Below the pieces are notes generated by a model, which ran no database searches, was not told the DNA's origin, and was given only the letters and a program-made list of their open reading frames with translations. From Girardia tigrina (taxonomy: Eukaryota), in assembly GCA_001938485.1 (NCBI GenBank), contig MQRK01227725.1:1-49334 (forward strand): 49,334 nt of DNA, written 5' to 3'. The translations under genes and the position numbers were made by a program. This document shows positions 1 through 48,604 of the stretch, in pieces; within the stretch, counting starts at the first letter, position 1, and the number at the start of each line of letters is the position of its first letter.

Positions 1-478
1 TTTATAATTTTTGATGAAGTAAAACAAATATTTATAATTTTAATTCCAAGTTTTGTTAGACTAAATATTATTTTATTTGAAGTTAATAATTTTACTAAAA
101 GAATTATTTAAAAATTTCCCATATAAAATTTTATCAAAAGTGTTCACATGTATTTTTTCGGAACCCTAACAAAAGGTTCTTAGTTAGTTTTCTAAGAAGG
201 TTCTCAAAATTTTCAAATGGTTCTCTGAAAAATTGTTCCTGCTCTCTAAATATTTATTTTCGTTCTTAAAAATGTTTAAAAGTGTTTTAAAAGTTGTGTT
301 TAAAAATGTTCTAGTTTTACTTCAGATAACTCTTATATTTATAACAGCAATTTTTAATAATTGTGTGTATAACTTCATCATGGCCGCTTCTGATTGGCCA
401 TCACCGATAATTTTTGATTTTAACTGGCTAGAATTGGCTGTTGTCATGCAGTGTGTCCAAATATAGACATGACTGCTT

Positions 479-1460
479 TGTCACGATGCTCTGTCTCCGG
501 TGATTCAGGATTAATCATCGCGTAATGTTATTTTTGCTTTTTTGGGATGAATCACGTAAATTCTTAATTAATTCTTTAAATTTTGCAAGGGTTATATCTT
601 CTCTCAGGAAGGTGCAATTCATTTGCGGGTTTCGCTCGTAGATTCTAATCGCGGAGATCTTTCAGGAGAGGGTCGGGTGACCGTCTACGCTTACTGGGAA
701 GCTCGGTAAGAGCCTTTGTTGCTTTTCGGACTTATTATTAATTAATTTTTTTATATTTCGGGCTTTATAACTTCTCTCAAGATAATACGACCTTCTGATG
801 GGTTATTGCCACGGATGCTTCTCGTGATATTCTATCTGCGGAGGGGCGGATGTACGATTTCTTTTATCGGGTGAGTTTTTATTCAGCTTTGTCTGGTTTT
901 ATGTCGTGTTTCACCTTCTACGATATTCGCAATGTTCTGTCAGACTACGGGGTATCGGCAATGATTTCACGGAGAATTCGAGAAACTCAAGAGTACTTCA
1001 GTTGGCGTCTATCAGGATTTGTAATGTTGTGAATTTTTAAATATTAAATCTCATGGTATTTCTTTTCTTCTGTTTGTTTTGTTGTTGTAATGTCTTAACG
1101 CAGGTAGCTGTCAATGTATTAAAGTCCGCCAGGTAAGCTGATGAATCTATAAATATATAGTTCCGTCAGCCAACCATTGGCTGACATACTAACTCTTGAA
1201 TGCCCGAAAGGATGGTTGATGTGGTGTGGTGCCTGTGTGGCGTGCGGAGACGATCACTTAATTTATAAGTGCGGGGTGAGGCCGCTAGCGAAAGAACTCC
1301 TGTGGAAATCAGGGTCGGGATAGAGGACGCCTTCGGGCTGATATGGCCGGCGAATTTATTTCAGTTTATAAATGAGTTTCCGATTGCAACATTACTTTCT
1401 ATTTTTTATTTTCTGTATGCGTGGTATTGGGTTTTATTTTGATGTTTTGTGAACACTGTA
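479..1460. mobile_element. LTR-like repeat copy C (TGTCACGA start), related to the elements at 4736 and 9873; right end undefined
   Basis: Begins TGTCACGA like copies A and B. 490-1050 aligns with 6375-6780 and 11645-12040, with the same GT-AG exon layout. No TSD found. Confidence 0.5.
490..1040 (+). pseudogene. Spliced mini-gene of unknown function in copy C, with a tandemly duplicated exon
   Basis: Exons 590-705 (GYIFSQEGAIHLRVSLVDSNRGDLSGEGRV..) and 762-870 (LYNFSQDNTTF*WVIATDASRDILSAEGRMYDFFYR). Donors GTAAAT 556, GTAAG 706, GTGAG 871. Contains stops and degenerate acceptors. Confidence 0.5.
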
Positions 1461-1662
1461 TATATGTGATGGGAATTTTACTAGAACACAATATTACCAT
1501 ATTTTACGTCGCAACATATTTAATTCCTGAGGAATCATAACTCTGTAACTCAATTACTAAGTCAATACTAAATTCTGAGCGATAATAGTAGAGTTAATCT
1601 TATTGTAATGATTATTAATTTTATTACAAAGTTTTATCAATCCAATTTGAAATTCCGTTATT

Positions 1663-3583
1663 TATTTTTGACAAATGGAATAAATATTAATTAATTACTT
1701 CATTTGTCCAAAACCTTCCCCGATAATATCATAAAATCATTGAAGACACTTTCCGATTATCTGAAATCAAAAAGTAAGCACGTATTTTAACAATTTGATT
1801 CTTCGTATTTTTGTAAGAAATAGGACAGAGAATAGCAACCATCTGAAAAAGGGAGACTAATATGACCACCTCAAATATTCATAGATAGTCATAGCATATT
1901 TCGAGAATTGAATGTAAATTATTGAAATTGCACAATTTCTTGGCACTAAAAGAACTACTTGCCATTTGATTGTTTACAAGTTTCAAACCATTGGTGAAGT
2001 TAATGCTAATAGACGTGGTTAATAGATGTCTCAAAAACTTTCTGAACATCAAAAATTGGCTAATATCCGAAAATCACCGAAGAAGACGTTTTCTGATTAT
2101 CAAAAGTTGGTATGATGAAGATTGTAAGCTATATTTAAATGCAGCTGCAAGATTTGTACAAACAGATGTTTCTATTTCAGTCTCTACCTCAACTTATAGC
2201 TCGAATCTTGGAGATTTTTCACTATCCTCTAAAAACTATTCAACTAATTCCCGAACGACAAAATAATATTTCCACGTTGGAAATTCGTAAAGACTATGAT
2301 TTGATGTTTAGAGCACCTCCTGCAACTTATTCAGAAGAACAAATTATTATCATTGATGAAGTTGGTTTTAATGTTTCATTAAGAGTATGCCGTAGACGGT
2401 AATTGCAGTTATTCCTGCGATTTGTTATATAAATATTTCAATTTGTTGTACAATACTTCTTAATGGAATTATTCATTTTAAATCAAAAAATCGAGCTTTT
2501 AATGGTTATCGATTTTTTAACTTATCGATTTTATCAACGAATTAAAGAATAATCTGCGATCAATTTGCATTTTAAGTGCAGTTTTTGTAATGAATAATAT
2601 AAATCCATAAAATGACATCAATGCAAGAAGCAATTAATGAAAATTTATATCGTGTTCTATACTTGCCTCCCTATCCTGCATTTCTAAGTCCCACTGAAAA
2701 TATATTCAATAAATGGAAAGATATTACAAAAAGGTCAAATCTAATAAATGAGTGTGGTGTTTCTTTGTTTCCATGTATATAATTAGGTATATATCTTGAA
2801 ATCTATCATCACACTAATGGAACAAATCAAATATACCAATTTTATCATGATTCGATAATAATCACAACCAACATTTTTATTTAGCTAAATTTCATTCTCA
2901 ATATTTTTGTAATCCTCCAAAATAATTAGACAATTTAAAATATATTTGTCTCCTATTTTTTTATGTACAAATTTGATAAAAATTAAACTGTATATAATTC
3001 CGGTGTGAAATGTTTGCTTAAAAAAGAAACTGTAAATTTTTTTATTGTCATAAGTAGTTTAATTTTTATTATATTTTGTTTCGGAAACCGTGCCTCAACT
3101 ATTTTTGTTTTAATTAACATAAAAATATACTAGAATCATTGTCGAAAATTAAGAAAATTAATCAACAGGTTCTAAAAAAAATATATGAACAATACAAATA
3201 TATTTGTTTAAATATTCGAATATTTTTGAGTGATTTTATTGAAATAATAAAGTTTAGAATCACTTTTCATTGCCTTATTAAATTTTCTAAAACGAATCTA
3301 TTTTATTGATGTTGGACGATAATGAACTGCCCGGGATCGGAGCTCACAAAATATATATTCATAAAAATGAATACAACTTATAATACTCATTTGACAGAAC
3401 GAGTACAAAAATGAGGCTGACCTTTTATCGGCTATCAATAATGGCGCAAATATGGTCTCGTAAATGGACTGTGAAGACTATTTTCGGTACATGTGGTCTT
3501 GCATTCGTAGGTGCAAAAAAAAGGATATGCTCACTTAAATAAAAACATTTTTATTCTATTTTTACTTTCATTTGTCAAAAATG
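1663..3583 (+). mobile_element. Degenerate Tc1/IS630-like (DD34E, DDE_3) DNA transposon, interrupted or composed of two related copies
   Basis: Fragments IIIDEVGFNVSLR (~2345), YLPPYPAFLSPTENIFNKWK (~2660) and a C-terminal NEADLLSAINNGA..DCEDYFRYM (~3410). Imperfect TIR TTTTTGACAAATG at 1665 and CATTTGTCAAAAATG ending 3583, followed by TA. Confidence 0.6.
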
Positions 3584-6209
3584 TAAGATACAATGGCAAA
3601 AATGAATGACGCAATGTCAAATTGGATTGAGGAACCCCATAAATTTGATTTAAACGATTGGTAAACATTCATATCGGAACGAAAAATTGCTCTCGCCAGG
3701 GCACCAATTATTGATTGTTTAAAAATTAATGGATAAATGAAGTTGATATTTCGATGAATCCGAATGCTATTAACCAACCCCACCATAAATATCGTAATGG
3801 ACATCGATACCAATAAAAGGAATTTAAAATTCATTTTCCGGTTGAGAAATAATTAAAATTATAACGATCAAATACAGAATCTATATTCATCTTCAGATCC
3901 AAAATATGGAAACTCGAACATTTGAATGACAGTTCCAGAATTTTTATTAACTGACTTGCCTGTAGCTTGCGCTTATATATGATTAAATATGATTAAAAAA
4001 AGAAATTAAATAAATTAAAAGAAATATAAAAAAAGAAAATTAGAATTAAATAGTTTGAATTTAAAATAAAACTGAGATAAAACTCAATTAATTAATTGGA
4101 GTCATGTGACTTGTTTCTTTGTTTTCATTTTTATTGTTTTCCTACAACAGATTAAAGTCTAGTGGGTGTGTAAGAGAGAGATCGCAATTGGGAATAAAAT
4201 GGCTCACTCTGATTGGTCGTTGGTAATCCAATCAGAGTAAGTCGGGACAGGGAGAGATTTTCAAATGACTAAATTCACTTTTCTCTAGATTGACGAAATT
4301 TCAAAAAAAATTCACAATTATGTATAAAAAATTCGGTTTTTTATCGAAAGATGAGATTATGTCGATTTATTTTGTTTATAACTTTTTTAACTCGAATTTA
4401 AAAATTGCTATTTGATAAAGAAACTGAATTTATTACAAAATCTTTAAATGCTCAAGTGTTATTTGATTTGAATCATTTATTTTTTTGTCAAGATTCTGAT
4501 TATAACACAATTTTGAATTTTAAAATGGTGGCAATTAAAACTTTTCAAGTGTCAGTTTCCTTGTTCTTTGATTTAAAGACGATATTTTCTTTTTGACTCA
4601 TAAATTTTGTGACAAGAAAATCTTTTAAATAAAAAAAAACTGATTCGAATTGTTGTTGTTAATATACTTTCAATGACATAATATATTACACATAATCAAA
4701 TAAAAATATTTAAATATAAATAAGTATTATATAACTGTCACGACCCATTCGAGTGATAACATTTTCGACAGCTCAAGAGCCCCCAGTGTTTGTTAAGGGT
4801 CAACCACGACCCGATATGTATTATCTTCAATTTATTATATTTAAGGAATCGGACGCACCTTCCTCGCCTGCCATTTACCGAGTAGTGACAGGTCTGGAAT
4901 GCCTTCAGGTTCAGTTTAGTTGGGAAATGGCTATGGGCCACCCAACTAGCTGATCGTTGCTCGGGGATGATTTTGCAATGTTTATTATTTTTCATCTTTG
5001 TTACACAGTGTGTACCTCCCTGTGCAGGTGTTGCTCATACTCATATAACTTGGTACATTGGCATATAACTATTGGATTTGTATTATGCTCACTAAGATCA
5101 ATATGTCCACTTCGCTCTAAATCTCTAAATGTAATCAGATATATCGATAAAATATATTGTTATAAGATTATTATATTTAAGAAATATTTACATTTATTAT
5201 TATCACTGGCAGAACGTTATAAAATTATTTATCAATAAATAGAATATCGCCTTATTTAACATTTTTATAGTAGTTGGCATTAGCATACGTATTTGACACT
5301 TAAGTAGAACTTGTTAAAAAATCGTCTAAATTTACTATTTACACTGAGCTTGTTGAATAAAACGTTAATTCAGTCATTAAGAAATGAAATCATTCAGAAT
5401 TTGTATTAGAGTTGAAATCCATATGTTTGAATAAACACCATGATTTCTCTTCGAGAAATGTTGATTAATTCAGTGTCTAGAACACGCGCGCTGCCTCATT
5501 AATCATTGACAACTGTCGCATAGTTGGTTGGTCATTACTCCTAATCTCTTCTGACAATCAATCAGGAAATTCACTCTCATTTATCAAACATGCAACAGAT
5601 CTTGTCTTTAAACTCATTCGAATTTGGACAACCGCCCTATCGCTCGATGATGGAATATTTAATTTCTTAGACCAGAACATTTCTCGGTTTTCCTTGGCGA
5701 CGGTCTCTACTCTTATTCTGAGGTAATGTTTGGATGTGCTTTACCACGAGAGGACGGGACTAAAATTAATTAATAACTAAGAAAATAACTAATAACTAAA
5801 TTAAATCAATCCAAATATTCAATTTAACTATTATGTTAATTTAATATAAATCGATGATTAAAGAATAGAGTTAGTAAAATAAACAAATAAATAAACTTAT
5901 AAGTAAATAAGTATATTAAGAATAACGCGCTTTACATAAAAGAGAACTTACATTTGGATTTATTTCTGGATTCGGCTGATGTTGGTTCCGGAGGAAAGTT
6001 GTAATATCGGTATCGTCAACTGTAGTTGTACTGAATTTGTTCGCGCTCAACTGATCAACTTTATCTCGGTGTTAAAACTTCTGAATATCGCTAAGACACT
6101 TCAAATGTTATGGCGAAAATTGTTGGATATAAAATTGTCGTTGTCGCCTAGATTAATTGTTGATTTTATTATGTCGTTTGTGTGGCCTTTTGGACTAAAA
6201 TAACTGCTG

Positions 6210-6293
6210 TATTTATAGCAGTGTTTTTCTCTCTCTCTTAATGAACGTAGTGCGTATTTGAATGATGTTGATACCTTGGAAAACCCTGATTGG
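6210..6293 (-). promoter_or_regulatory. CCAAT box plus TATA box inside LTR-like copy A
   Basis: Minus-strand CCAAT (6289-6293) lies ~72 nt upstream of TATAAATA (6210-6217). The same pair recurs in copy B. Confidence 0.5.
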
Positions 6294-6379
6294 TTCTTAC
6301 CAGTGTTTCCCGTTTTCAATTCGTTTGGACATATGGTGCGTCTATGTAGTCCTGATTGTAGTAATCAACAACGATCGTG

Positions 6380-6720
6380 CTGACTCACGATTATTTATAG
6401 TGAATAATCATGCGATGTTTATTTTAGGACTAATGAGTGATTCACAGTAAGTTCTTAATTAATTTCTTTTATTTCAATTAACTTTTCATTTTCAAGGCTT
6501 TATATCTTTTTGCCGGATGACCCAATCTTGGACTGGATCACAGTTATGGATGGCTGACGACAGGGGTTTACCGGAGAGATCCGGTTGGTCGATTTCGTCC
6601 ATCAGGTTAGTTCTGGCGTAACCTTTTGTGTTTCAACTTATCAATATATTTTCAGAATACTGGGAACGACACTTCCGCTCTACTCGGCTTCGTGAAAATA
6701 TAACAAGTTACTGTTGATGT
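6380..6720 (+). pseudogene. Spliced mini-gene in copy A
   Basis: Exon ..SRLFIVNNHAMFILGLMSDS, intron 6447-6496 (GTAAGT..AAG), 109-nt exon 6497-6605 (LYIFLPDDPILDWITVMDG*RQGFTGEIRLVDFVHQ), donor GTTAG. Confidence 0.5.
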
Positions 6721-7311
6721 GGGCCAGAATCTGGATCGTAAACTACGACTTTTGTTTATGCGATTTAAATATATGTATCGTGGAGTAATCGTGCTTTTTC
6801 TTCTACATTTCTCAAAATATTATGGGATATAAATGTTGTGTAAATATTTAACGGATCTCTGACAACAACATAACCTTCTCACAAATAAACATTATTTTTT
6901 TGTGAAAAAAATTACAAATAACTGAAAGTTGAAAAAAACAATTATGATATGAAAAGATCGCATATTCATCGTAAAAAGATTTAAATCATAATGCTAAACT
7001 ATTAAACCTTTTGACCAAATGTTGCATTAAAAGTATCATAAAGTATTTGGTGGTTAATAATATGTAGTAACAATATTTTTTTTACAAATGGAGTGTTTTT
7101 CTTTATAAAAACAATATGTCTATACTTTTTAATTATCAGAATAATTATTTTCCTGGTTATATTCAATATATATATGTGTGTGTGTGAAATTGGTGTGTTT
7201 ATTACAAGGAAAATAATTAGATATACATTTTTTGGCTTCCTGTGTCACCGAGAATATTATCCCCTCATTTTAGGTTAGTAATTAGGTTAGTTTTTAGGTT
7301 TTATATTGTAA

Positions 7312-7688
7312 TTCAGCATGATAACACAAGACCGCATACAAGTTTGACAACTCGCCAGAAACTCTTATCATTGGTTAGGAGGCTTTGCCGCACCCACCGT
7401 ATTCTCCAGACTTGGCCCCATCGGTTTTTCACTTATTTAGATCACTGCAGAATTCATTAAACAGAAAAACATTCGCCAGTGATGATGACATCAAATCGTT
7501 TCTAGACGGCTTTTTTGCTGACAAAGGCAAAGGTTTTTATGAATCAGGAATAATGAAGCTACCGGAAAGGTGGAAGAAAGTGATTGAAAATAATGGACAG
7601 TATATCGTGTAAAAATATTTGTGCATCCATGTCATTTTTGATAATAAATATTTTAAAAAAAAATGCAATGACTTTTTGGCAAACCCAA
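7312..7688 (+). mobile_element. mariner (DD34D) 3' fragment with right TIR, mellifera-like
   Basis: QHDNTRPH..HPPYSPDLAPS(V)FHLFRSLQ..GIMKLPERWKKVIENNGQY. TIR ...TGCAATGACTTTTTGGCAAACCCAA followed by TA. The third catalytic D is mutated and the 5' part is missing. Confidence 0.9.
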
Positions 7689-7751
7689 TAGTTTATCTGT
7701 GATGTGGTACATTTAACAGACAACTTACATTCGATATGATAACATTGCTTA

Positions 7752-9239
7752 TACTGAGCGTCAAATCTTTTAAAACAGTTAGTATTATGCAGATAAACAT
7801 ATAATGTAAAAACATTTGTAACATTTTATAAATTGTTGTCTTTAATTATTTTATATTTATTTCGAAAACATTTAATATANNNNNNNNNNNNNNNNNNNNN
7901 NNNNNNNNNNNNNNNNNNNNNNNNNNNNNNNNNNNNNNNNNNNNNNNNNNNNNNNNNNNNNNNNNNNNNNNNNNNNNNNNNNNNNNNNNNNNNNNNNNNN
8001 NNNNNNNNNNNNNNNNNNNNNNNNNNNNTTTTTGTTAGAATATGAGATCAGAAGTTGAACGATCATTAGCAATTAAATGGAAAGCTGAAGGTCGTAGTTA
8101 TGCAGAAATCGCTGAATTATTGTCGATTACAAGAAATGAAGCCATCAATTTATGTTTTTACAAGTTGAAAACTATCAAAAGAAAATCGGGTCCACCAAAG
8201 AAATTAAAAGGTTATCATCAGTTGCTTATAAAAAGTTTCATGAAAAGAAGACAAAGGTAAATGCACCAAAAATTATTAAAGAATGTAATTTAGACGTCTC
8301 GCTCCGTACAGTACAATGACATTTAAAATGCCAGGGACTAAAATATAAAAGATCAAAGTCAAAAATAAATCTCAGTAAAAGTCATAAGGAAAAACGTTTA
8401 GAAATAATAACTGAGTGGATTACAAAAAAACAAAAATGGGAAACAACAATATTTAGTGACGAAAAGCGATTTTCGTTAGACGGTCCTGATGACTGGAGAT
8501 CTTATATGTATGATTCAAATTTGACTACCCGAATTAAAAGACAATGTCATGGTGGTGGTGTCATGGTCTGGTTGATGACCATGCCAAATAGTCTCATGGC
8601 ATTCAAAGTATTAGAAGGCATCTTTAATTCTAAAAAATATATAGAATTGCTTAAAGAAATGATAATTCCGATAATGAAACTTAATTATGGAAGTGACTTC
8701 TGCTTTCAAGAAGANNNNNNNNNNNNNNNNNNNNNNNNNNNNNNNNNNNNNNNNNNNNNNNNNNNCAATATTTCAGTACTTGATTGGCCGGCGAAAAGTC
8801 CCGATTTGAACATCGTTGAAGACTGTTGGAAAACAATATCAGATTTGGTGTATGATGGAAAACAGTTTAATAAGAAAGATGAATTAATCAAAAAAATAAA
8901 GGAAGACTTAAATACCAAAAGCAAAGACAAAGTGAAAAATCTATATCAGTCAATAAAACCCCGTTTGTGCAAGGTATTGAAAGTTAGAGGAAATTTGTAC
9001 AATTAAAGGTTTGTTGAAGAAAATATATTAATGTTTTAAAAGATTTGTCGTTTTTAATTTGAACCATTTTCAATATTTTTAAGTAAATAAATATTAAGGA
9101 CGTCAAACTGTATTTTAATATTCACTATCGGCGAAAGTATGTATTACTTGCATAGTGCCACTATTTTTATTTATATATAATACAAATCAAAAGAGATAGA
9201 CAAAAAGATTTACTGTTTTAAAAGATTTGACGCTCAGTA
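7752..9239 (+). mobile_element. Full-length Tc1/Tc3-like DNA transposon
   Basis: Perfect 28-bp TIRs TACTGAGCGTCAAATCTTTTAAAACAGT (7752-7779 / 9212-9239) with TA TSDs. Confidence 0.92.
8042..9006 (+). pseudogene. Tc3-like DD34E transposase, disrupted
   Basis: N-terminal HTH, IFSDEKRFSLDGPD, GGGVMVW, WPAKSPDLNIVE. Frameshift near 8235, in-frame stop near 8317, assembly gap over the second D. Confidence 0.9.
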
Positions 9240-9872
9240 TATCAAAACTTTGATTAAATAAAGTCAACACTATTCTTAGTTTAAAAATATTATTATTCAT
9301 GGTTTTTTAATTACTCGCACCTGGTTTTTATATTTGGGTCACATGCATGAATTAATTTTAAACATATTAATAAATTATGTTCAACAGTTTATTATCTCAA
9401 TATAAAGGTGATTTGATTTTACTAAACACAATAACGATGTCTATATAAATAATATAACAATTATTATAATACTTTCATATATTGTTTCCTTTCAATAAAA
9501 ATATCTATATAATAAATATTTAATTTAATAAATATAATTTTATATAATTAATTTCAGCAAGACATAAACGGTATTTGATCGGTTTTAAAAGACTCTTATC
9601 AAGAAGAATGTCGTAATTTTTTAATTTGCAAATAATACGTTTGTTTCGTAATTTGAAACATCGCACAAATATGAGAAAATTTATTAATATTATTGATTAA
9701 ATAATAAACAAGTTGAACTCAAATTAAATAAATAAAGGTACAAAGAAATATTTGACATTTGCTACAAGATTTTTAATTTTTAAGTATGATTCTTTTGGAA
9801 TCTTATCTCTGTAATTCGATTACGAAATCAATACCAAACTCTGTCAACGATAACAATAAAATTACTATTATT

Positions 9873-12110
9873 TGTCACGACCCCTTCGAGTAGTAACATT
9901 CTTGAATGCTCATGAGCCCCAGTAGTTATTAAGGGTTAACCACAACCCGATATATCTCGTATTTAATTTTACATGTTTGTTTTTAAGGTGGTCGGACGCA
10001 TCTCCCTCGTCTGACATCGAACTAGTAGTGCGAGGTTTTGAGTGTCATCGGGTTCAACTCAGTTGAGAAAGGCTATGCGCCCCCCAACTAGCTCAGCGCC
10101 GTTCGGGGCTGATTTAGATATTATGAACCGATTATTTATGTGTGATTTGTGTGTTCTCTCGGTGCGTGCCTCTCTGATGCTTGTCTAAATTGTTATACTC
10201 TGTTCTGGTGATTTTCTCAAAGTAATTCTGAAAGAGAAACATTATCATAATTATTATTTATAAATGTCACTCTGCCTGTTGCGTGTCTCGCTTATGCTGG
10301 TAAAACTGGCGACATTGTCATTCTGTTACTAGACAGCATTGTATTTCGGTGTAGCACCTTTAAATTCAGGTTCCTGTTATAATCAACAACAGTTCTAAAA
10401 GATTATAGTTTATTAATTTAATATCTATAAATTTATCATTCTTCAGGAATTCAATTTAGCATTTATCATAAATTATTACCATTCATTTAACCTACTATAC
10501 ATACAAGACGGTCAGTCAGCATTTACTCATTTAATTCATCGAGATATATTTATTAATTATTGTATTTTAATTACTTATTTAATACTTATACGACAAATAC
10601 TCGTTATTGATTAACTCATTACTGAACATGTTATTTGTCATCTAATTCTACAGAAATTATCGCAACATATGCCCATCGCTCATGACTACTTTATCGCCTC
10701 CCTGTAATCACATTTTCTCTTATTTACAATTTTCGATTATCAGCACTCTGATTAGTTGGGTAAATTTAGTAACAATAATTCAACTAATTTCAATTTATTT
10801 ATTAGCACAGGGGATTTCTCATTATCGATCTGAAAGAATTGAACGGAATTCACGTTATTCTGATGAAGCTGTAGCAGTAATTGTAGCACAGGAAATTCAG
10901 TGTCATAGCCGTGAATAGTTAAATATCGCTTCGTATTTACTCTGGGAATTCTCACGCAAATTTTTATTATCACTCTCACTGTTATATAACTGTCAATAAC
11001 TGTATTTGCGACGTCATGATTGTTCTCTCTACTGTTTGCCTAGAGAAACTGCATGGTAGCGAAGACTACGACAACGATTGGGAAGATACCTACTCCTTAA
11101 CGTTAAAAACTATGAAATTATAAATTTAAATTAATTATTAAATGAAGATATACGAAGAACAAAAATGGTTATGGAATACATATATTCAAATTATAAAAAA
11201 CGTCGAAAATTTACATTATAAAATAAGTTCCTTGACTGCAATGAAAACTGGATCCGGAGGAATATATATCGCTGGTCACTCGAAATTTTGCAATTTATTC
11301 AAAATGGATAGATGTCCCTCGGTAATATCGTTCAATTTGGTTGTGGTGATCCTACTCGTGAATTTCAGTTTGGATCGTTGATTGCAAAGTTTGTTCCGAA
11401 TTGCTTTTGAAAATTTGTTCAAATTTTGTCGTCATTTGGTACGTTCTGTAAATTTGTTCTATTTTGTTACTGTTCTGAATTTTGTTGTTGTGAATTTTGT
11501 TTCTAAAATTACTCTGGATAACAAGTATATTTATAGCAGTATGTCTCTAACTACTGCCTGTTGGTGTACTGCGATTCGTCGCTTGTGGGCTCTAGCCACT
11601 GCTATTGGCTATTGCTATCTAATTCTGTAATTTTCAATCGTGTGACAGCGACCACGTCACCGGTTATTCATGATGAATAATCATGAGTAATCATTCTGGA
11701 GTTTTATCGTTTAATCCTCGTAAGGGTTTTAATTAACTTTTATTATTTTAATTAGTTTTTCTCGATTTTTCAGGGTGAATATCTTTGCTTAGGAGGATTA
11801 CTTTTCAAAACAGATCGCACTCATGGATTCTTCTCAGAGGGAGCTATCTGGAGAGGGTCGGCTGTTCAATTTTATTCATCCGGTGAGTTTTGATGCGACT
11901 TTGTGTATTTTACTCATTTATGTGGTGTTTTAGCTTCTACGAGGTATTAATGTTCCGCTGGGTCGTGAGATCTGAAACGGTTCAGGCGACACCGATCGGG
12001 GCTCAACTCAGTTGACTAACTTGTCATAAGTTTCAAATATATGTATTTTATACTGTCGTTGTTTCTTTTCTTTTATGTACAGTGAAGCGTTATTAATGTA
12101 TATCTGATCG
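9873..12110. mobile_element. ~2.2-kb solo-LTR-like element, copy B; right end not resolved
   Basis: Starts TGTCACGACCC like copy A. Same order of modules: left coding module, TATA 11528-11535, CCAAT 11604-11608, spliced module with 109-nt exon 11774-11882. Confidence 0.6.
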
Positions 12111-12688
12111 CAAAATTGGGATTATTACCATTATTATTATTTTTATTAGTAGTATTATTGTTATCCTTGTTTTTAATACAAAATTTATTGATAAAATGTG
12201 TAGGATGAAATCTTAGAAACGTTGCAAACAATCTGTTTGGTGGAGGGCTTAATGTAAAAACTTTTTTCAAAGATTTTCATCTGAAATCTGTAGAGCCGTA
12301 TTCCACCTTCACAGTGAAGCCCTGATGTTATGTTCAAACAGAACTTTTGAAATGATATATAATTTTGAATCGATATATAATAAAAAATTAAAATTTTTAC
12401 GCAATTTATTCGGAACTAATGGTTTTACGAATTCGATTTTACGATAACGTAGATAATTCTATTAATAATAAATCAGACTACAAGTTAACTACATCATAAT
12501 TTGATTCAGATAATGGTATTAAAACAAAAATAGATTAATGGAAAATAAAATAAAAAATTGTGTTAATTAAAATTTATACTGTCGTTGTTTCTTTTCGTTT
12601 ATGTACAGTGAAGCGTTATTAATGTATATCTGATCGCAAAATAGTAGTATTGGGATTATTACCATTATTATTATTTTTATTAGTAGTC
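12047..12688. repeat. Local ~110-bp direct duplication (12047-12155 and 12574-12688)
   Basis: TTTATACTGTCGTTGTTTCTTTTC...GATCGCAAAAT..TGGGATTATTACCATTATTATT is present twice, nearly identical. Confidence 0.8.
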
Positions 12689-39947: not shown

Positions 39948-41840
39948 ATTCCACGGTTGGAATTAGTAGCCGCTTGTTTGGGAGTAAAATTGATGAAAAA
40001 GGTTAAGCAAATATCGAAAAAAAAATATAGAAAAGAATAAAATATTTTACTGATTTGATAGTGAAGATGTGTTATATTGGATAACACAACAAAGTAGATT
40101 ATTCAAAACATTTTTAGTCAATCGAGTAAGTAAAATTCAAGAATCTACGACATCAAAACAATGGAAATATGTTCCTAGTGCTCTGAATCCAGCAGATTAT
40201 TTATCCCGAGGAGTAACAGCAGATGTAAAAGCAAAAATTGACAAGTGGTTAATTTAGGATTAGGTCCAGGATTCTTGACAAAAGATAAACAAACTTGGCC
40301 AATTTGGAAGCACAAAACGGAAAAACCGAAATGTGAAGAAATAAGAATCAAGACAATTCTAACTTTTACTTCAAATTTAACAGCACGGAAGATGCATCGA
40401 CTTGCTTAGATGTTAAAACATTTTCTAATTGGAAAGAATTGGTCACAGCAAGAGCCTGGATACTTCGATTCATAAATAACTGCAGAAAAGAAAATTATAC
40501 TCGAAAATTCAATGATTTAGACGTGGATTAGATTCTGGAAGCTGAAAAGAGTATAATATGGGAGGATCAACAGACAATATTTAAAGAGGAATTCTATATA
40601 CCGTATTTTCGCGCATATAACTCTCATCATTTTTTCATATCCAGGGACATTTAGAGTATGTAAAAACACATTTTATCAGCTGTTTATCATCCTGAAATGT
40701 TAGTTGTTATCATGTAAATTATTTTTAGGATACACCGCCTATTTTTATACCCTGCGAGTAGCGTGGGGCGTAGATAAAATCACACATGACCTACGGGTTA
40801 TATGCGCGAAAATACGGTAATTAAAAATAAGCAACAGATATCAAATCACTCTAAATTAAAATCAATGAATCCCATGATTGATAAAGACAGAATTCTTCGG
40901 AGTAGTAGTAGACTAACGGAATGGGACTTTATATCCTGGGACAAGAAATATCCTATCATCCTCAAGGGTTTCAGTCATGTCACAAGATTAATAACTGAAA
41001 ATTGTCCTCTCAGTTTAAAGCATGTCGGAGGCACCGAACATATACTAACTGAGTTAAATAATTTTTACTGGATAATTGGAGCATGACAAGCAATCATGAG
41101 TGTTAAAAATAATTGTTTAAAATGTAAACGTTTTAAGGCTAAAGGACTGGGCCAAATAATGGCACCTCTGCCGAAATTCAAAGTAAGTGGGCCAGAAAGA
41201 CCTTTTATGATAATTACAGTTGATTATGCTGGATCTTTTTTAACAGTTCACAGAAGGGGGCATCACAAAGAAAAAAGATATATGTGCTTACACACATATG
41301 GTCAAACAAAAGCCATTCATTTAAAAATGGCAGCGGATTTAGGAATTGAAAGTTTCCTACGAATATTTAAAAGATTTATATCTCGACGAGGTATTCCGAA
41401 CACAATTCTATCATATCGGGGAACAAATTTTGTGGGAGCAACTAATGAAGTAAATGTTTTCGAAATTGACACATTCAAAATGAAAAAAGAAATTGAAGGA
41501 CTAAAAATAAGATGAATATTGCAACTACCAGGAACTCCTCACTTTGGTGGTATGCACGAAATAATGATTAAAGCGGCGAAGAAAGCTTTGAAACTAATTT
41601 ATGGATATGCAAGTCTCTCGGATAATGAGCTACAGACGGCGTTCATTTAAGTGGAAGGAATACTGAATTAAAGACCTCTATGTGGAATAAGTAATGATCC
41701 AATTGATGATGAAGTACTTACACCGAATCATTTTTTATTGATGGGCATCAAAAATAATCATATTAACTTTCAGGACAACATTGTCAGTCAAAGATTACGA
41801 CGAAGATGGAAATTAATGCAAGAATTGATAGAACATTGTT
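39948..41840 (+). mobile_element. BEL/Pao LTR retrotransposon pol remnant (RNase H-integrase)
   Basis: IPRLELVAA, NRVSKIQ..WKYVPSALNPADYLSRG, zinc-finger CLKC, QIMAPLP..VDYAG, RFISRRGIP..GTNFVGA, LTPNHFL. Frameshifts and stops. Confidence 0.92.
40601..40817. mobile_element. 217-bp pogo-family MITE inserted in the BEL/Pao pol
   Basis: Perfect 21-bp TIR CCGTATTTTCGCGCATATAAC with TA TSDs. Removing it restores ..FKEEFYI-IKNKQQISNHSKL.. Confidence 0.92.
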
Positions 41841-47312: not shown

Positions 47313-48604
47313 GGATCTTGTTAAAAATATGCCCCTAGGGGCATATTTTTAGTTGTGTAATTTTAGGGGCGTACTTTTTAGTTGTGTAATTGTAGGGGCG
47401 TACGTTTTAGTTGTGTAATTTTAGGGGCGTACTTTTTAGTTGTGAAAAAAGGTCATTACCTCGCCGCAACTGTCACACTTCATTGATAATTTCAAAATAC
47501 CCTAACCCATTATAAATACCTCTTATTTATTTTAATGTTCATAAATATTTTTTGGATCATGTCACTTAGTACCTATGAAACAATCATAAGAAGACTAATG
47601 AATGCTGATTTACAAGACACGATAGCATATTTAAAACAAAGGATATTTTGAAATTATCAATGAAGTGTGATAGTTGCGGCGAGGTAATGACCTGGACAGC
47701 TAAGCAAAGTGTTATAGACCAATATGTCTGGAAATGCCAAAATAAGAGGTGTTCAAATTACAAAACAACTTTGTCAATTAGAACTAATTCTTTGTTGGGC
47801 ATTTCCAGAATCAGTCTTCAAACATGGATAGATTTGCTCTACATATGGAGTAATGAAGAATCAATTGTTGCGATTCAACGGTCTTTGACTGTATCAACGC
47901 CCACTCTTATTAAAATATTCAAAACCATAAGAAAATGCTTTTTTGAACATTTTGAAGCTAATCCTGTAAGACTGCACGGCGGAAATGTAATCTGTCAAAT
48001 CGATGAAAGTCTTTTTGCTACAAACAAAAATATCATCGTGGCTGAATTGCTAACCATCAGGAATTGGTATTTAGTATCGTTGATACATCTTTTACTCCGG
48101 CGAGAGATATAATGCGAGTGGTTCCAAACAAATCTGCGGCTATATTGAAACCCATTATCTGTGAAATATTATTGTCGGGTACAACTATTCACAGTGATGA
48201 ATGGAGAGCATATTCCAATTTAAATGCTCTAGGATATGATCATGGTACAGTTAATCATTCGATTAATTTTGTAGATCCTAGAACCGGGATTCACACACAA
48301 AATGTTGAATCTTATTGGAATAAAAACAAAAAACGGTGCAAGAAAATGAAAGGAGTTAAAAAAGAATTTTTGCAGGATTACCTTAATGAGTTTATGTGGC
48401 GAGACAACATTTCTGGAGATTCTTTTGAAAAATTACTATAATGATGAATAAATTTCATAGTTTTGTATTGTGTTTTTATTGTATTTATTACACGGGGGCA
48501 TATTTTTTAGTTGTGTAATTTTAGGGGCATACTTTTTAGTTGTGTAATTTTAGGGGCGTACTTTTTAGTTGTGTAATTTTAGGGGCATACTTTTAACATG
48601 ATCC
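47313..48604 (+). mobile_element. Merlin (IS1595/ISXO2-like) DNA transposon
   Basis: 25-bp TIR GGATC(T/A)TGTTAAAA(A/G)TATGCCCCTA, perfect 8-bp TSD CAATATAT (47305-47312 / 48605-48612), 29-bp subterminal tandem repeats. Confidence 0.95.
47559..48441 (+). pseudogene. Merlin/ISXO2-like DDE transposase, frameshifted
   Basis: CxxC..WxC zinc finger, QIDESLF, YKQKYHRG, TIHSDEWRAY, VNHS..FVDP.TGIHTQNVESYW, YLNEFMWR. Two frameshifts (~47640, ~48015). Confidence 0.92.

Follow-up and report, generated by a model that had tools for sequence, protein, structure and literature searches.

Within the U3 part of a family of long terminal repeats (LTRs) in Girardia tigrina there lies, antisense to the retroelement, a short ordered series of exons and introns. 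On balance, and by a narrow degree of confidence, this series is read here as a self-contained non-coding unit whose spliced, polyadenylated RNA would regulate the element. The unit was followed from three copies, called A, B and C, in a window of 49,334 nucleotides (contig MQRK01227725.1, forward strand), the window being one 49-kb contig of a 1.43 Gb, AT-rich and fragmented assembly (GCA_001938485.1). Position numbers are those of the window, and labels such as L269, C200761 and P0004 denote fetched genomic or Logan stretches. The original prediction for this DNA, made from the letters alone, had proposed a selected accessory protein gene in the same three copies, but the unit is probably not a protein gene.

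Structure and probable splicing of the antisense unit

Bounded on one side by the sense TATA box and on the other by a poly(A)-like signal that faces outward, the unit runs in the order exon 1, intron, an exon of 109 or 117 nt, last intron, terminal exon, poly(A)-like signal. It is present once in 75, twice in 48 and three times in one of 124 LTR copies; copy A holds intron and exon twice in tandem, which had been overlooked earlier. The exon is exactly 109 nt long in 49 and 117 nt long in 29 of 129 distinct units (19 have other exon lengths and in 32 no donor was found), the intron measures 52-54 nt in 80 of the 129, and these lengths are maintained in 22 lineages. Alignment of the exon requires hardly any gaps, at a between-lineage difference of about 48%; the exon is GC-rich (47%) in alternation with AT-rich intron (19%). 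Donors, acceptors, terminal exon and poly(A)-like signal are kept in this order on one strand in distant lineages. The signal itself, AATATA, AATAAA or AATACA followed by a GT/T-rich tract, stands about 85 nt from the LTR edge in 64 of 82 copies, and six of eight aligned pol-linked LTRs have the canonical AATAAA at that place. The three 109-nt segments of the original prediction, with their quoted translations, were borne out, each being followed by GT and preceded by an AT-rich, intron-like stretch of 50-56 nt. It was also right that one of the three acceptors has decayed, but this acceptor is the one before 762 (CGG) and not that of copy C; those before 6497 and 11774 are AG, and the copy letters may have been ordered differently there.

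Support for splicing of the unit comes from contigs of X3, one of the runs (X3, X5, X6 and X13) that are only guessed to be RNA, none of them being recorded as such. Two X3 contigs carry joints from 6445 to 6497 (one letter between, depth 4.6) and from 6429 to 6499 (19 letters, depth 19.3), both of which represent exact removal of 6447-6496, and to this extent the claim that the unit contains an intron stands, the RNA nature of the run being a guess. The strand of the spliced RNA is read from GT-AG only. A junction probe for an intron-less genomic copy found none (two matches, both unrelated, and two for the control), and X13 gave no coverage of the window LTRs. Joints are also found on the sense strand of the LTR leader, where an intron of copy B is joined across and a second, probable one is skipped, and these lend support both to the orientation of the LTR and to the RNA nature of the X runs. 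The 45-nt skip at 6020-6064 may instead be a genomic deletion in relatives. Sense introns that are spliced and yet kept in the DNA imply separate pools of spliced mRNA and unspliced genomic RNA.

Ends and orientation of the LTRs

The three repeats of the window are solo LTRs of a high-copy family, for which a first look at the genome gave 993, 1902 and 2656 candidates for the three copies; the profile read backwards and the junction controls gave no comparable signal (junction control 0). That long solo-LTR-like elements are present was thus rightly foreseen, as is confirmed by target-site duplications (TSDs), primer-binding sites (PBS), polypurine tracts (PPT) and gag-pol interiors. The motif TGTCACGA does occur at 479, 4736 and 9873, where the original prediction began its three elements, but at 479 it is internal to copy A: relatives can be aligned across it as far back as 171, and they truly end about 1.4 kb further out than the homology of copy A. 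The true ends are TGTCACGACC…GACCGCAACA with a 4-bp TSD. The TGACA formerly taken as the end of copy A, at 1182, is part of an unrelated repeat outside the homology, which stops at 1119, and the near-perfect 5-bp TSD proposed with it, in place of the actual 4 bp beyond …GACCGCAACA, arose because the end had been placed 6 nt early. Both ends are carried by 24 rows among the 124 unit-bearing copies fetched, with an exact 4-bp TSD in 13, a match of 3/4 in nine (22 of 24 thus reaching at least 3/4) and of 1/4 in two, namely window copy C and L206. Lengths of these complete copies range from 1.3 to 3.3 kb, mostly near 2.0-2.3 kb, and their flanks, duplicates excepted, are not shared. Four copies were tested for internal direct repeats and terminal inverted repeats (TIRs), and neither was found. 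At 12573-12641 the outer ~70 nt of LTR C recur with 99% identity, and the TSD match there is 3/4. The TSDs tend toward A/T in their middle two positions, and LTRs of this family are often adjacent, nested or set in (TA)n tracts (L067, L117, L175, L049, L002).

The orientation is fixed by relatives that adjoin an interior. Two stretches lacking a TSD, L117 and L206, have a common sequence before TGTCACG which, reversed, reads GTCGTGACA, 2-4 nt, TGGGGGCTCAGCCGGGAT. The junction CGTGACA plus 2-4 nt plus TGGGGGCTC occurs at 168 genomic places, against 0 for the control, and 48 of 50 fetched junction stretches (some places having been fetched twice) match the LTR end profile. What adjoins the TGTCACG end, on the minus strand, is an 18-nt tRNA-Pro primer site: the 3' end of the host tRNA-Pro(TGG) is complementary to it, and at 26 of 30 sites 17-18 of the 18 nt agree. 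The other LTR end is reached after a common …CCGGAGGAA, a short purine tract, in nine of 20 stretches downstream of an open reading frame (ORF) that follows integrase, and in eight of those nine junctions the antisense unit is on the opposite strand. The sense strand of the LTR is the minus strand of the window, and not the plus strand that the original prediction had implied; since the TGTCACG end is followed by the tRNA-Pro primer site on that strand, the spliced unit is antisense in U3. Searches for a primer site after the …CCGCAACA end and for a purine tract before TGTCACG had yielded none, most matches being other repeats, because the orientation had been assumed the wrong way round. A second copy of the primer-site core TGGGGGCTC is found inside the LTR, about 40 nt from its 3' end on the minus strand (4777-4785 and 9914-9922); it is one G shorter in copy C, recurs in other subfamilies and may help to bind the tRNA primer. 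The borders of U3, R and U5 are presumptive, U3 being taken as the outer ~660-700 nt.

The parent element

Judged by the order of its domains, the parent is a giant Ty3/gypsy element of Burro type; Burro elements are, to our knowledge, the largest LTR retroelements known and are dominant in planarian genomes. On contig C200761, whose reading frames are broken, the order is Ty3_capsid, Retrotrans_gag, zf-CCHC, a ubiquitin-like region (E 1e-4 to 7e-4, below the cut-off), Monjiviricetes_fusion, RVP, dUTPase and RVT_1. The fusion env (PF24664) between gag and protease is matched at E 9e-51 and 2.6e-82, and the dUTPase between protease (PR) and reverse transcriptase (RT) at E 4e-4, which is below the cut-off; a weak likeness to Bcl-xL (E 0.2) just before env is at the place expected for Burro. 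L269 joins a complete unit-bearing LTR and its primer site to RT_RNaseH and Integrase_H2C2. The pol order PR, RT, RNase H (RH), integrase (IN) is assembled from separate contigs (PR-dUTPase-RT from C200761, RH-IN from L269), and in this fragmented assembly no single contig examined holds both LTRs of one interior. MATH, BIR and ankyrin domains were absent from the scanned interior pieces, which cover the interior partly (N gaps, short frames), and a genome search for BIR gave seven matches, none tied to these LTRs.

Some 6.5 kb between primer site and gag hold at least six short sense ORFs of 140-165 aa (L267:2693-8668, L275, L260, L264) with no match in a Pfam scan; by eye they are charged and coiled-coil-like. 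The first of them is under purifying selection, with a ratio of nonsynonymous to synonymous substitution (dN/dS) of 0.25 in 37 copies at a synonymous divergence (pS) of 0.55. After integrase there follows a sense ORF of about 1,300-1,400 codons with hydrophobic stretches, extending to ~250 nt before the 3' LTR (L305-L323), which has at least 150 genomic matches, no Pfam match above the cut-off and a dN/dS of 0.20 over its first 197 codons (22 copies). A gag beside the LTR in L113/L114 was considered and rejected as this family's interior: the LTR there is solo (TSD ATGG/GTGG) and lies, at L113:1654-3997, immediately before another, small gypsy element, which has internal deletions and LTRs of ~130 bp.

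Coding potential and alternative explanations

Selection at the codon level was assessed on 78 exons of 109 or 117 nt from 22 lineages, with 51 units of other or unknown length excluded. Between lineages dN/dS was 0.93, compared with 1.05 +/- 0.16 for a column-shuffled null (p=0.24), and the excess of third-position change was not significant (p=0.13 for 37 exons, p=0.20 for all 78). By the same pairwise method the post-integrase ORF scored 0.20 and the first accessory ORF 0.25, with 35-codon windows at 0.14-0.35. A check on dN/dS had been part of the original prediction, a value near 1 counting against coding, and the value obtained is near 1. The conserved peptide 'RLFxxNNH' in exon 1 proved to be a DNA palindrome, GATTATTCA-N3-TGAATAATC. 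Among 56 units, the TGA(A/C/T)TCA motif directly abuts the donor in 16 and is separated from it by 1 nt in 20 and by 2 nt in another 20, so that no frame is kept across the first junction; eight of 46 copies are open for 20 codons. The exon translation matched nothing in Pfam or the PDB, and a protein-profile search of 1.84 billion proteins returned five matches and no credible homologue; of the four inspected, three are repeat proteins in which the stretch that matches is short. P0004, a Logan contig of 137 aa with two copies of a motif like the LSGEG core of the exon, probably derives from reading through a doubled unit of a different sample.

A small antisense protein gene in U3, which either evolves fast in some lineages or is left over from a captured exon that once coded, is nevertheless an explanation for which something can be said, although we think it unlikely. 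It would account for the near gap-free alignment, for exon lengths of 109 (1+108) and 117 (a multiple of three), for the wobble-like variation in the L-S-G-E-G codons and for the in-register ATG that 23 of 46 copies, including all 11 of one lineage, have ahead of the intron. The frame originally proposed also has the lowest dN/dS of the six (0.94, against 1.08-1.35) and the fewest lineage-shared stops (nine of 22 lineages, against 15 of 22 in each of the other two frames), in a comparison biased by the use of that frame as the query with which many unit copies were collected. Against such a gene stand the gap between 0.93 and the 0.20-0.25 of real ORFs of the element, one of them at similar divergence, a stop that 16 of 46 copies, and whole lineages among them, have one codon ahead of the intron, the use of all three registers across the junction, the shortening of the second unit by deletions in pol-linked LTRs, and the want of any homologue, domain or structure match. 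It is for these reasons, namely antisense position, dN/dS, shared stops, three registers and a palindrome in place of a peptide, that the selected accessory protein gene of the original prediction is not upheld.

U3 enhancers are often tandemly duplicated, and the unit could be an enhancer module of this kind with antisense splicing as a by-product, which we likewise regard as unlikely. Wobble bases are among its conserved positions, which form clusters in short motifs, exon 1 has palindromes and repeated TGATTCA motifs, the number of units per LTR varies from one to three, and GC-rich exon and AT-rich intron alternate; among the motifs are those that we take to be AP-1-like (TGA(A/C/T)TCA), TAATTA, GATA-like and GC-box-like, which stand at fixed spacing with a period of 163-171 nt. 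An enhancer, however, explains neither the full ordered set of splice sites, terminal exon and poly(A)-like signal kept on one strand in distant lineages nor the exact intron removal in the guessed-RNA contigs. The exact ends have also been considered in the light of Ginger DNA transposons, which have TGT…ACA ends, a 4-bp TSD and introns. The ends and the 4-bp TSD fit a non-autonomous Ginger-like element, but four copies lack TIRs, and the PBS and PPT junctions together with the gag-pol interiors that adjoin the repeat refute it, so that for practical purposes it may be set aside. It is very improbable, finally, that the exons form a 5' leader to an antisense mRNA of the HBZ kind, running from the 3' LTR into an interior ORF: spliced antisense RNAs of the 3' LTR occur in deltaretroviruses (in the available text of PMC10186651) and antisense ORFs lie near the 3' LTR in plant Retand elements (in that of PMC11963269), but here the adjacent interior is filled by the long sense ORF, the antisense frames there are of 134-162 aa and overlap it, and the poly(A)-like signal comes before the LTR edge.

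Preference is given to a non-coding antisense RNA, and several observations weigh against it. The splicing evidence consists of two low-depth, unstranded contigs from one guessed-RNA sample, which derive from a related copy and carry the label of another organism; unspliced contigs are also present among the guessed-RNA runs, the joint over the first intron of copy A is off by one base, and no spliced joint over copy C is among those listed. Donors and the exon-start motif served as anchors in collecting the units, and their invariance is partly built in. No conserved RNA fold was found in the exon (-0.41 kcal/mol) or in exon 1 (0 pairs), and the palindrome is therefore not established as an RNA hairpin. 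Strict exon and intron lengths are not explained by a non-coding RNA, and the frame originally proposed, as noted above, has the lowest dN/dS of the six. Sense-strand introns also persist in the LTR, and antisense position is thus not the sole way for an intron to survive. The LTR subfamilies of the window match primer-linked LTRs at ~69-73% only and no interior belonging to exactly these subfamilies was found, so that the link to an interior is at family level.

Proposed function of the antisense RNA

If the antisense unit is transcribed as proposed, the promoter region around the TATA box would fire both ways. The sense transcript would run through R and U5 to the tRNA-Pro primer site and the interior, and the antisense transcript, of about 450 nt in copy B and 600 nt where the unit is doubled, would lose two or three short introns and terminate where the poly(A) signal is predicted, ~85 nt short of the edge; with the signal in that position it would stay within the LTR. 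The introns would be kept through reverse transcription because, being antisense, they are not removed from the genomic RNA. The antisense RNA would be the complement of the U3 tail that each genomic RNA carries, and its most likely role would be control of LTR output, by way of splicing-coupled transcription at the promoter and of pairing with U3. We infer the start site, the use of the poly(A) signal, the non-coding status of all lineages and the regulatory effect. A stronger claim, that this is a selected multi-exon antisense RNA gene wholly within U3, with its own promoter, introns and poly(A) site, and is conserved and amplified in tandem across more than 20 lineages, is put forward tentatively, as something possible and not as something probable. 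If it is true, every solo LTR is a complete gene, and scattered through the genome are thousands of sources of an RNA complementary to the 3' tail of the element, which would set the activity of the element or feed host silencing.

Features of the window

The coordinates of the LTRs, the antisense units and the sense-strand signals are collected below with those of other features of the window.

Table 1. Features of the window, with strand and basis
Feature	Position	Strand	Basis or remark
Antisense exon 1, copy B (putative start, approximate)	6240..6446	+	palindrome and TGA(A/C/T)TCA before donor
Antisense intron 1, copy B, 50 nt, GT-AG	6447..6496	+	exactly absent in two X3 contigs
Antisense 109-nt exon, copy B	6497..6605	+	sequence
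Antisense intron 2, copy B, 50 nt, GT-AG, predicted	6606..6655	+	sequence; homologous sites in relatives
Predicted antisense poly(A) signal, copy B (AATATA, then GT/T-rich tract)	6768..6773	+	~95 nt inside LTR edge
Antisense intron 1, copy C, 54 nt, GT-AG	11720..11773	+	sequence
Antisense 109-nt exon, copy C	11774..11882	+	next predicted intron 11883-11933
Predicted antisense poly(A) signal, copy C	12036-12041	+	homologue of copy B signal
First (117-nt) tandem exon, copy A	589..705	+	after shortened intron 556-588, acceptor decayed
Second (109-nt) exon, copy A	762..870	+	after intron 706-761, acceptor decayed
TATAAATA box, putative sense promoter, copy B	6210..6217	-	TATTTATA on plus; conserved in pol-linked LTRs
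TATAAATA box homologues	11528 (copy C), 336 (copy A)		sequence comparison
Sense-strand leader intron, copy B, 192 nt, GTAAG…TTTTAG	5760..5951	-	joined across in contigs X5, X6
Probable second sense intron, 45 nt, AG acceptor, donor non-canonical in copy B	6020..6064	-	skipped in X3, X5, X6
U5-side ~245 nt common to all subfamilies	4736..4981 (B), 9873-10121 (C)	-	conserved
Solo LTR copy B, complete, 2135 bp	4736..6870	-	sense 5' end 6870, 3' end (…GGTCGTGACA) 4736
TSD of copy B, exact TAAC	4732-4735 and 6871-6874		flanks of copy B
Solo LTR copy C, 2243 bp	9873..12115	-	TSD 1/4 at 12115 end
Truncated LTR copy A	171..1119	-	limited to part of U3 and the promoter region; lacks either true end
Repeat with very deep coverage in guessed-RNA runs	7306-7690		read coverage
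Tc1/mariner-like transposase remnant	8040-9006		PF01498, PF13358 below cut-off
Integrase-like fragment, presumably BEL/Pao-like	41087-41515		no Pfam match
ISXO2-like transposase	47609-48441		PF12762, E 3.6e-23

Comparison with known systems

Accessory genes within an LTR are familiar from nef and the sag of mouse mammary tumour virus, which lie in U3, in sense orientation, and are intron-free and protein-coding. The present unit shares with them its place in U3, but it is antisense, contains introns and lacks codon-level selection. Bidirectional LTR promoters, spliced non-coding antisense RNAs and antisense ORFs in the interiors of plant Ty3/gypsy elements are already known. What the analysis fixes for Burro-type LTRs is their orientation, the tRNA-Pro primer, the 4-bp TSD, the leader introns and the antisense unit across deep lineages. 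It also offers a caution, in that a gap-free, spliced exon of fixed length in a repeat need not encode protein.

The interior agrees with that of Burro/GYPSM1 of dugesiid planarians, as described in the available text of PMC6431247, in a Gag with CCHC knuckles, a ubiquitin-like region and a weak Bcl-2 likeness, in a mononegavirus-like fusion env between gag and protease and a dUTPase between protease and RT, and in accessory ORFs ahead of gag, a very long interior and many copies. It differs in that MATH and BIR are absent from the pieces scanned here, and the likeness is one of description and not of sequence; according to the same text, MATH (in the polyprotein or an upstream ORF), BIR and ankyrin of Burro themselves differ between species. 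That part of the source contains nothing on the LTR structure, primer, TSD or an antisense unit of Burro, and no account of an antisense exon-intron unit in a Burro LTR was found in a literature search whose scope left the original Burro paper and its supplements outside. BURRO1 is a target of SMEDWI-2, and hence under PIWI control, in the available text of PMC8532177.

The closest parallel is with the AS1 and AS2 RNAs of bovine leukaemia virus (BLV), which the available text of PMC10186651 describes as LTR-driven antisense RNAs of 400-600 nt that are spliced, polyadenylated and judged non-coding and regulatory. Those RNAs belong to a vertebrate retrovirus and start in U5 of the 3' LTR, whereas here exons, introns and predicted end are all in U3, and in some lineages the unit is, unlike AS1 and AS2, tandemly duplicated. 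Hbz of human T-cell leukaemia virus type 1 (HTLV-1), which is spliced, and Ast/ASP of human immunodeficiency virus type 1 (HIV-1) likewise stem, in that text, from antisense transcription at a bidirectional LTR promoter, but they extend into the interior and encode proteins, while no selected ORF is found here. Plant Retand, in the available text of PMC11963269, resembles the present family as a long Ty3/gypsy element with an antisense accessory unit, and differs in that its units are long ORFs which code for protein and lie outside the LTR, in the stretch from pol to the 3' LTR. The unit described here is confined to U3, and each solo LTR therefore carries the whole of it. The retroviral antisense RNAs known so far extend out of the LTR. 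An RNA confined to it would outlast the formation of solo LTRs, and would thereby directly link solo LTRs, self-regulation of the element and silencing by PIWI.

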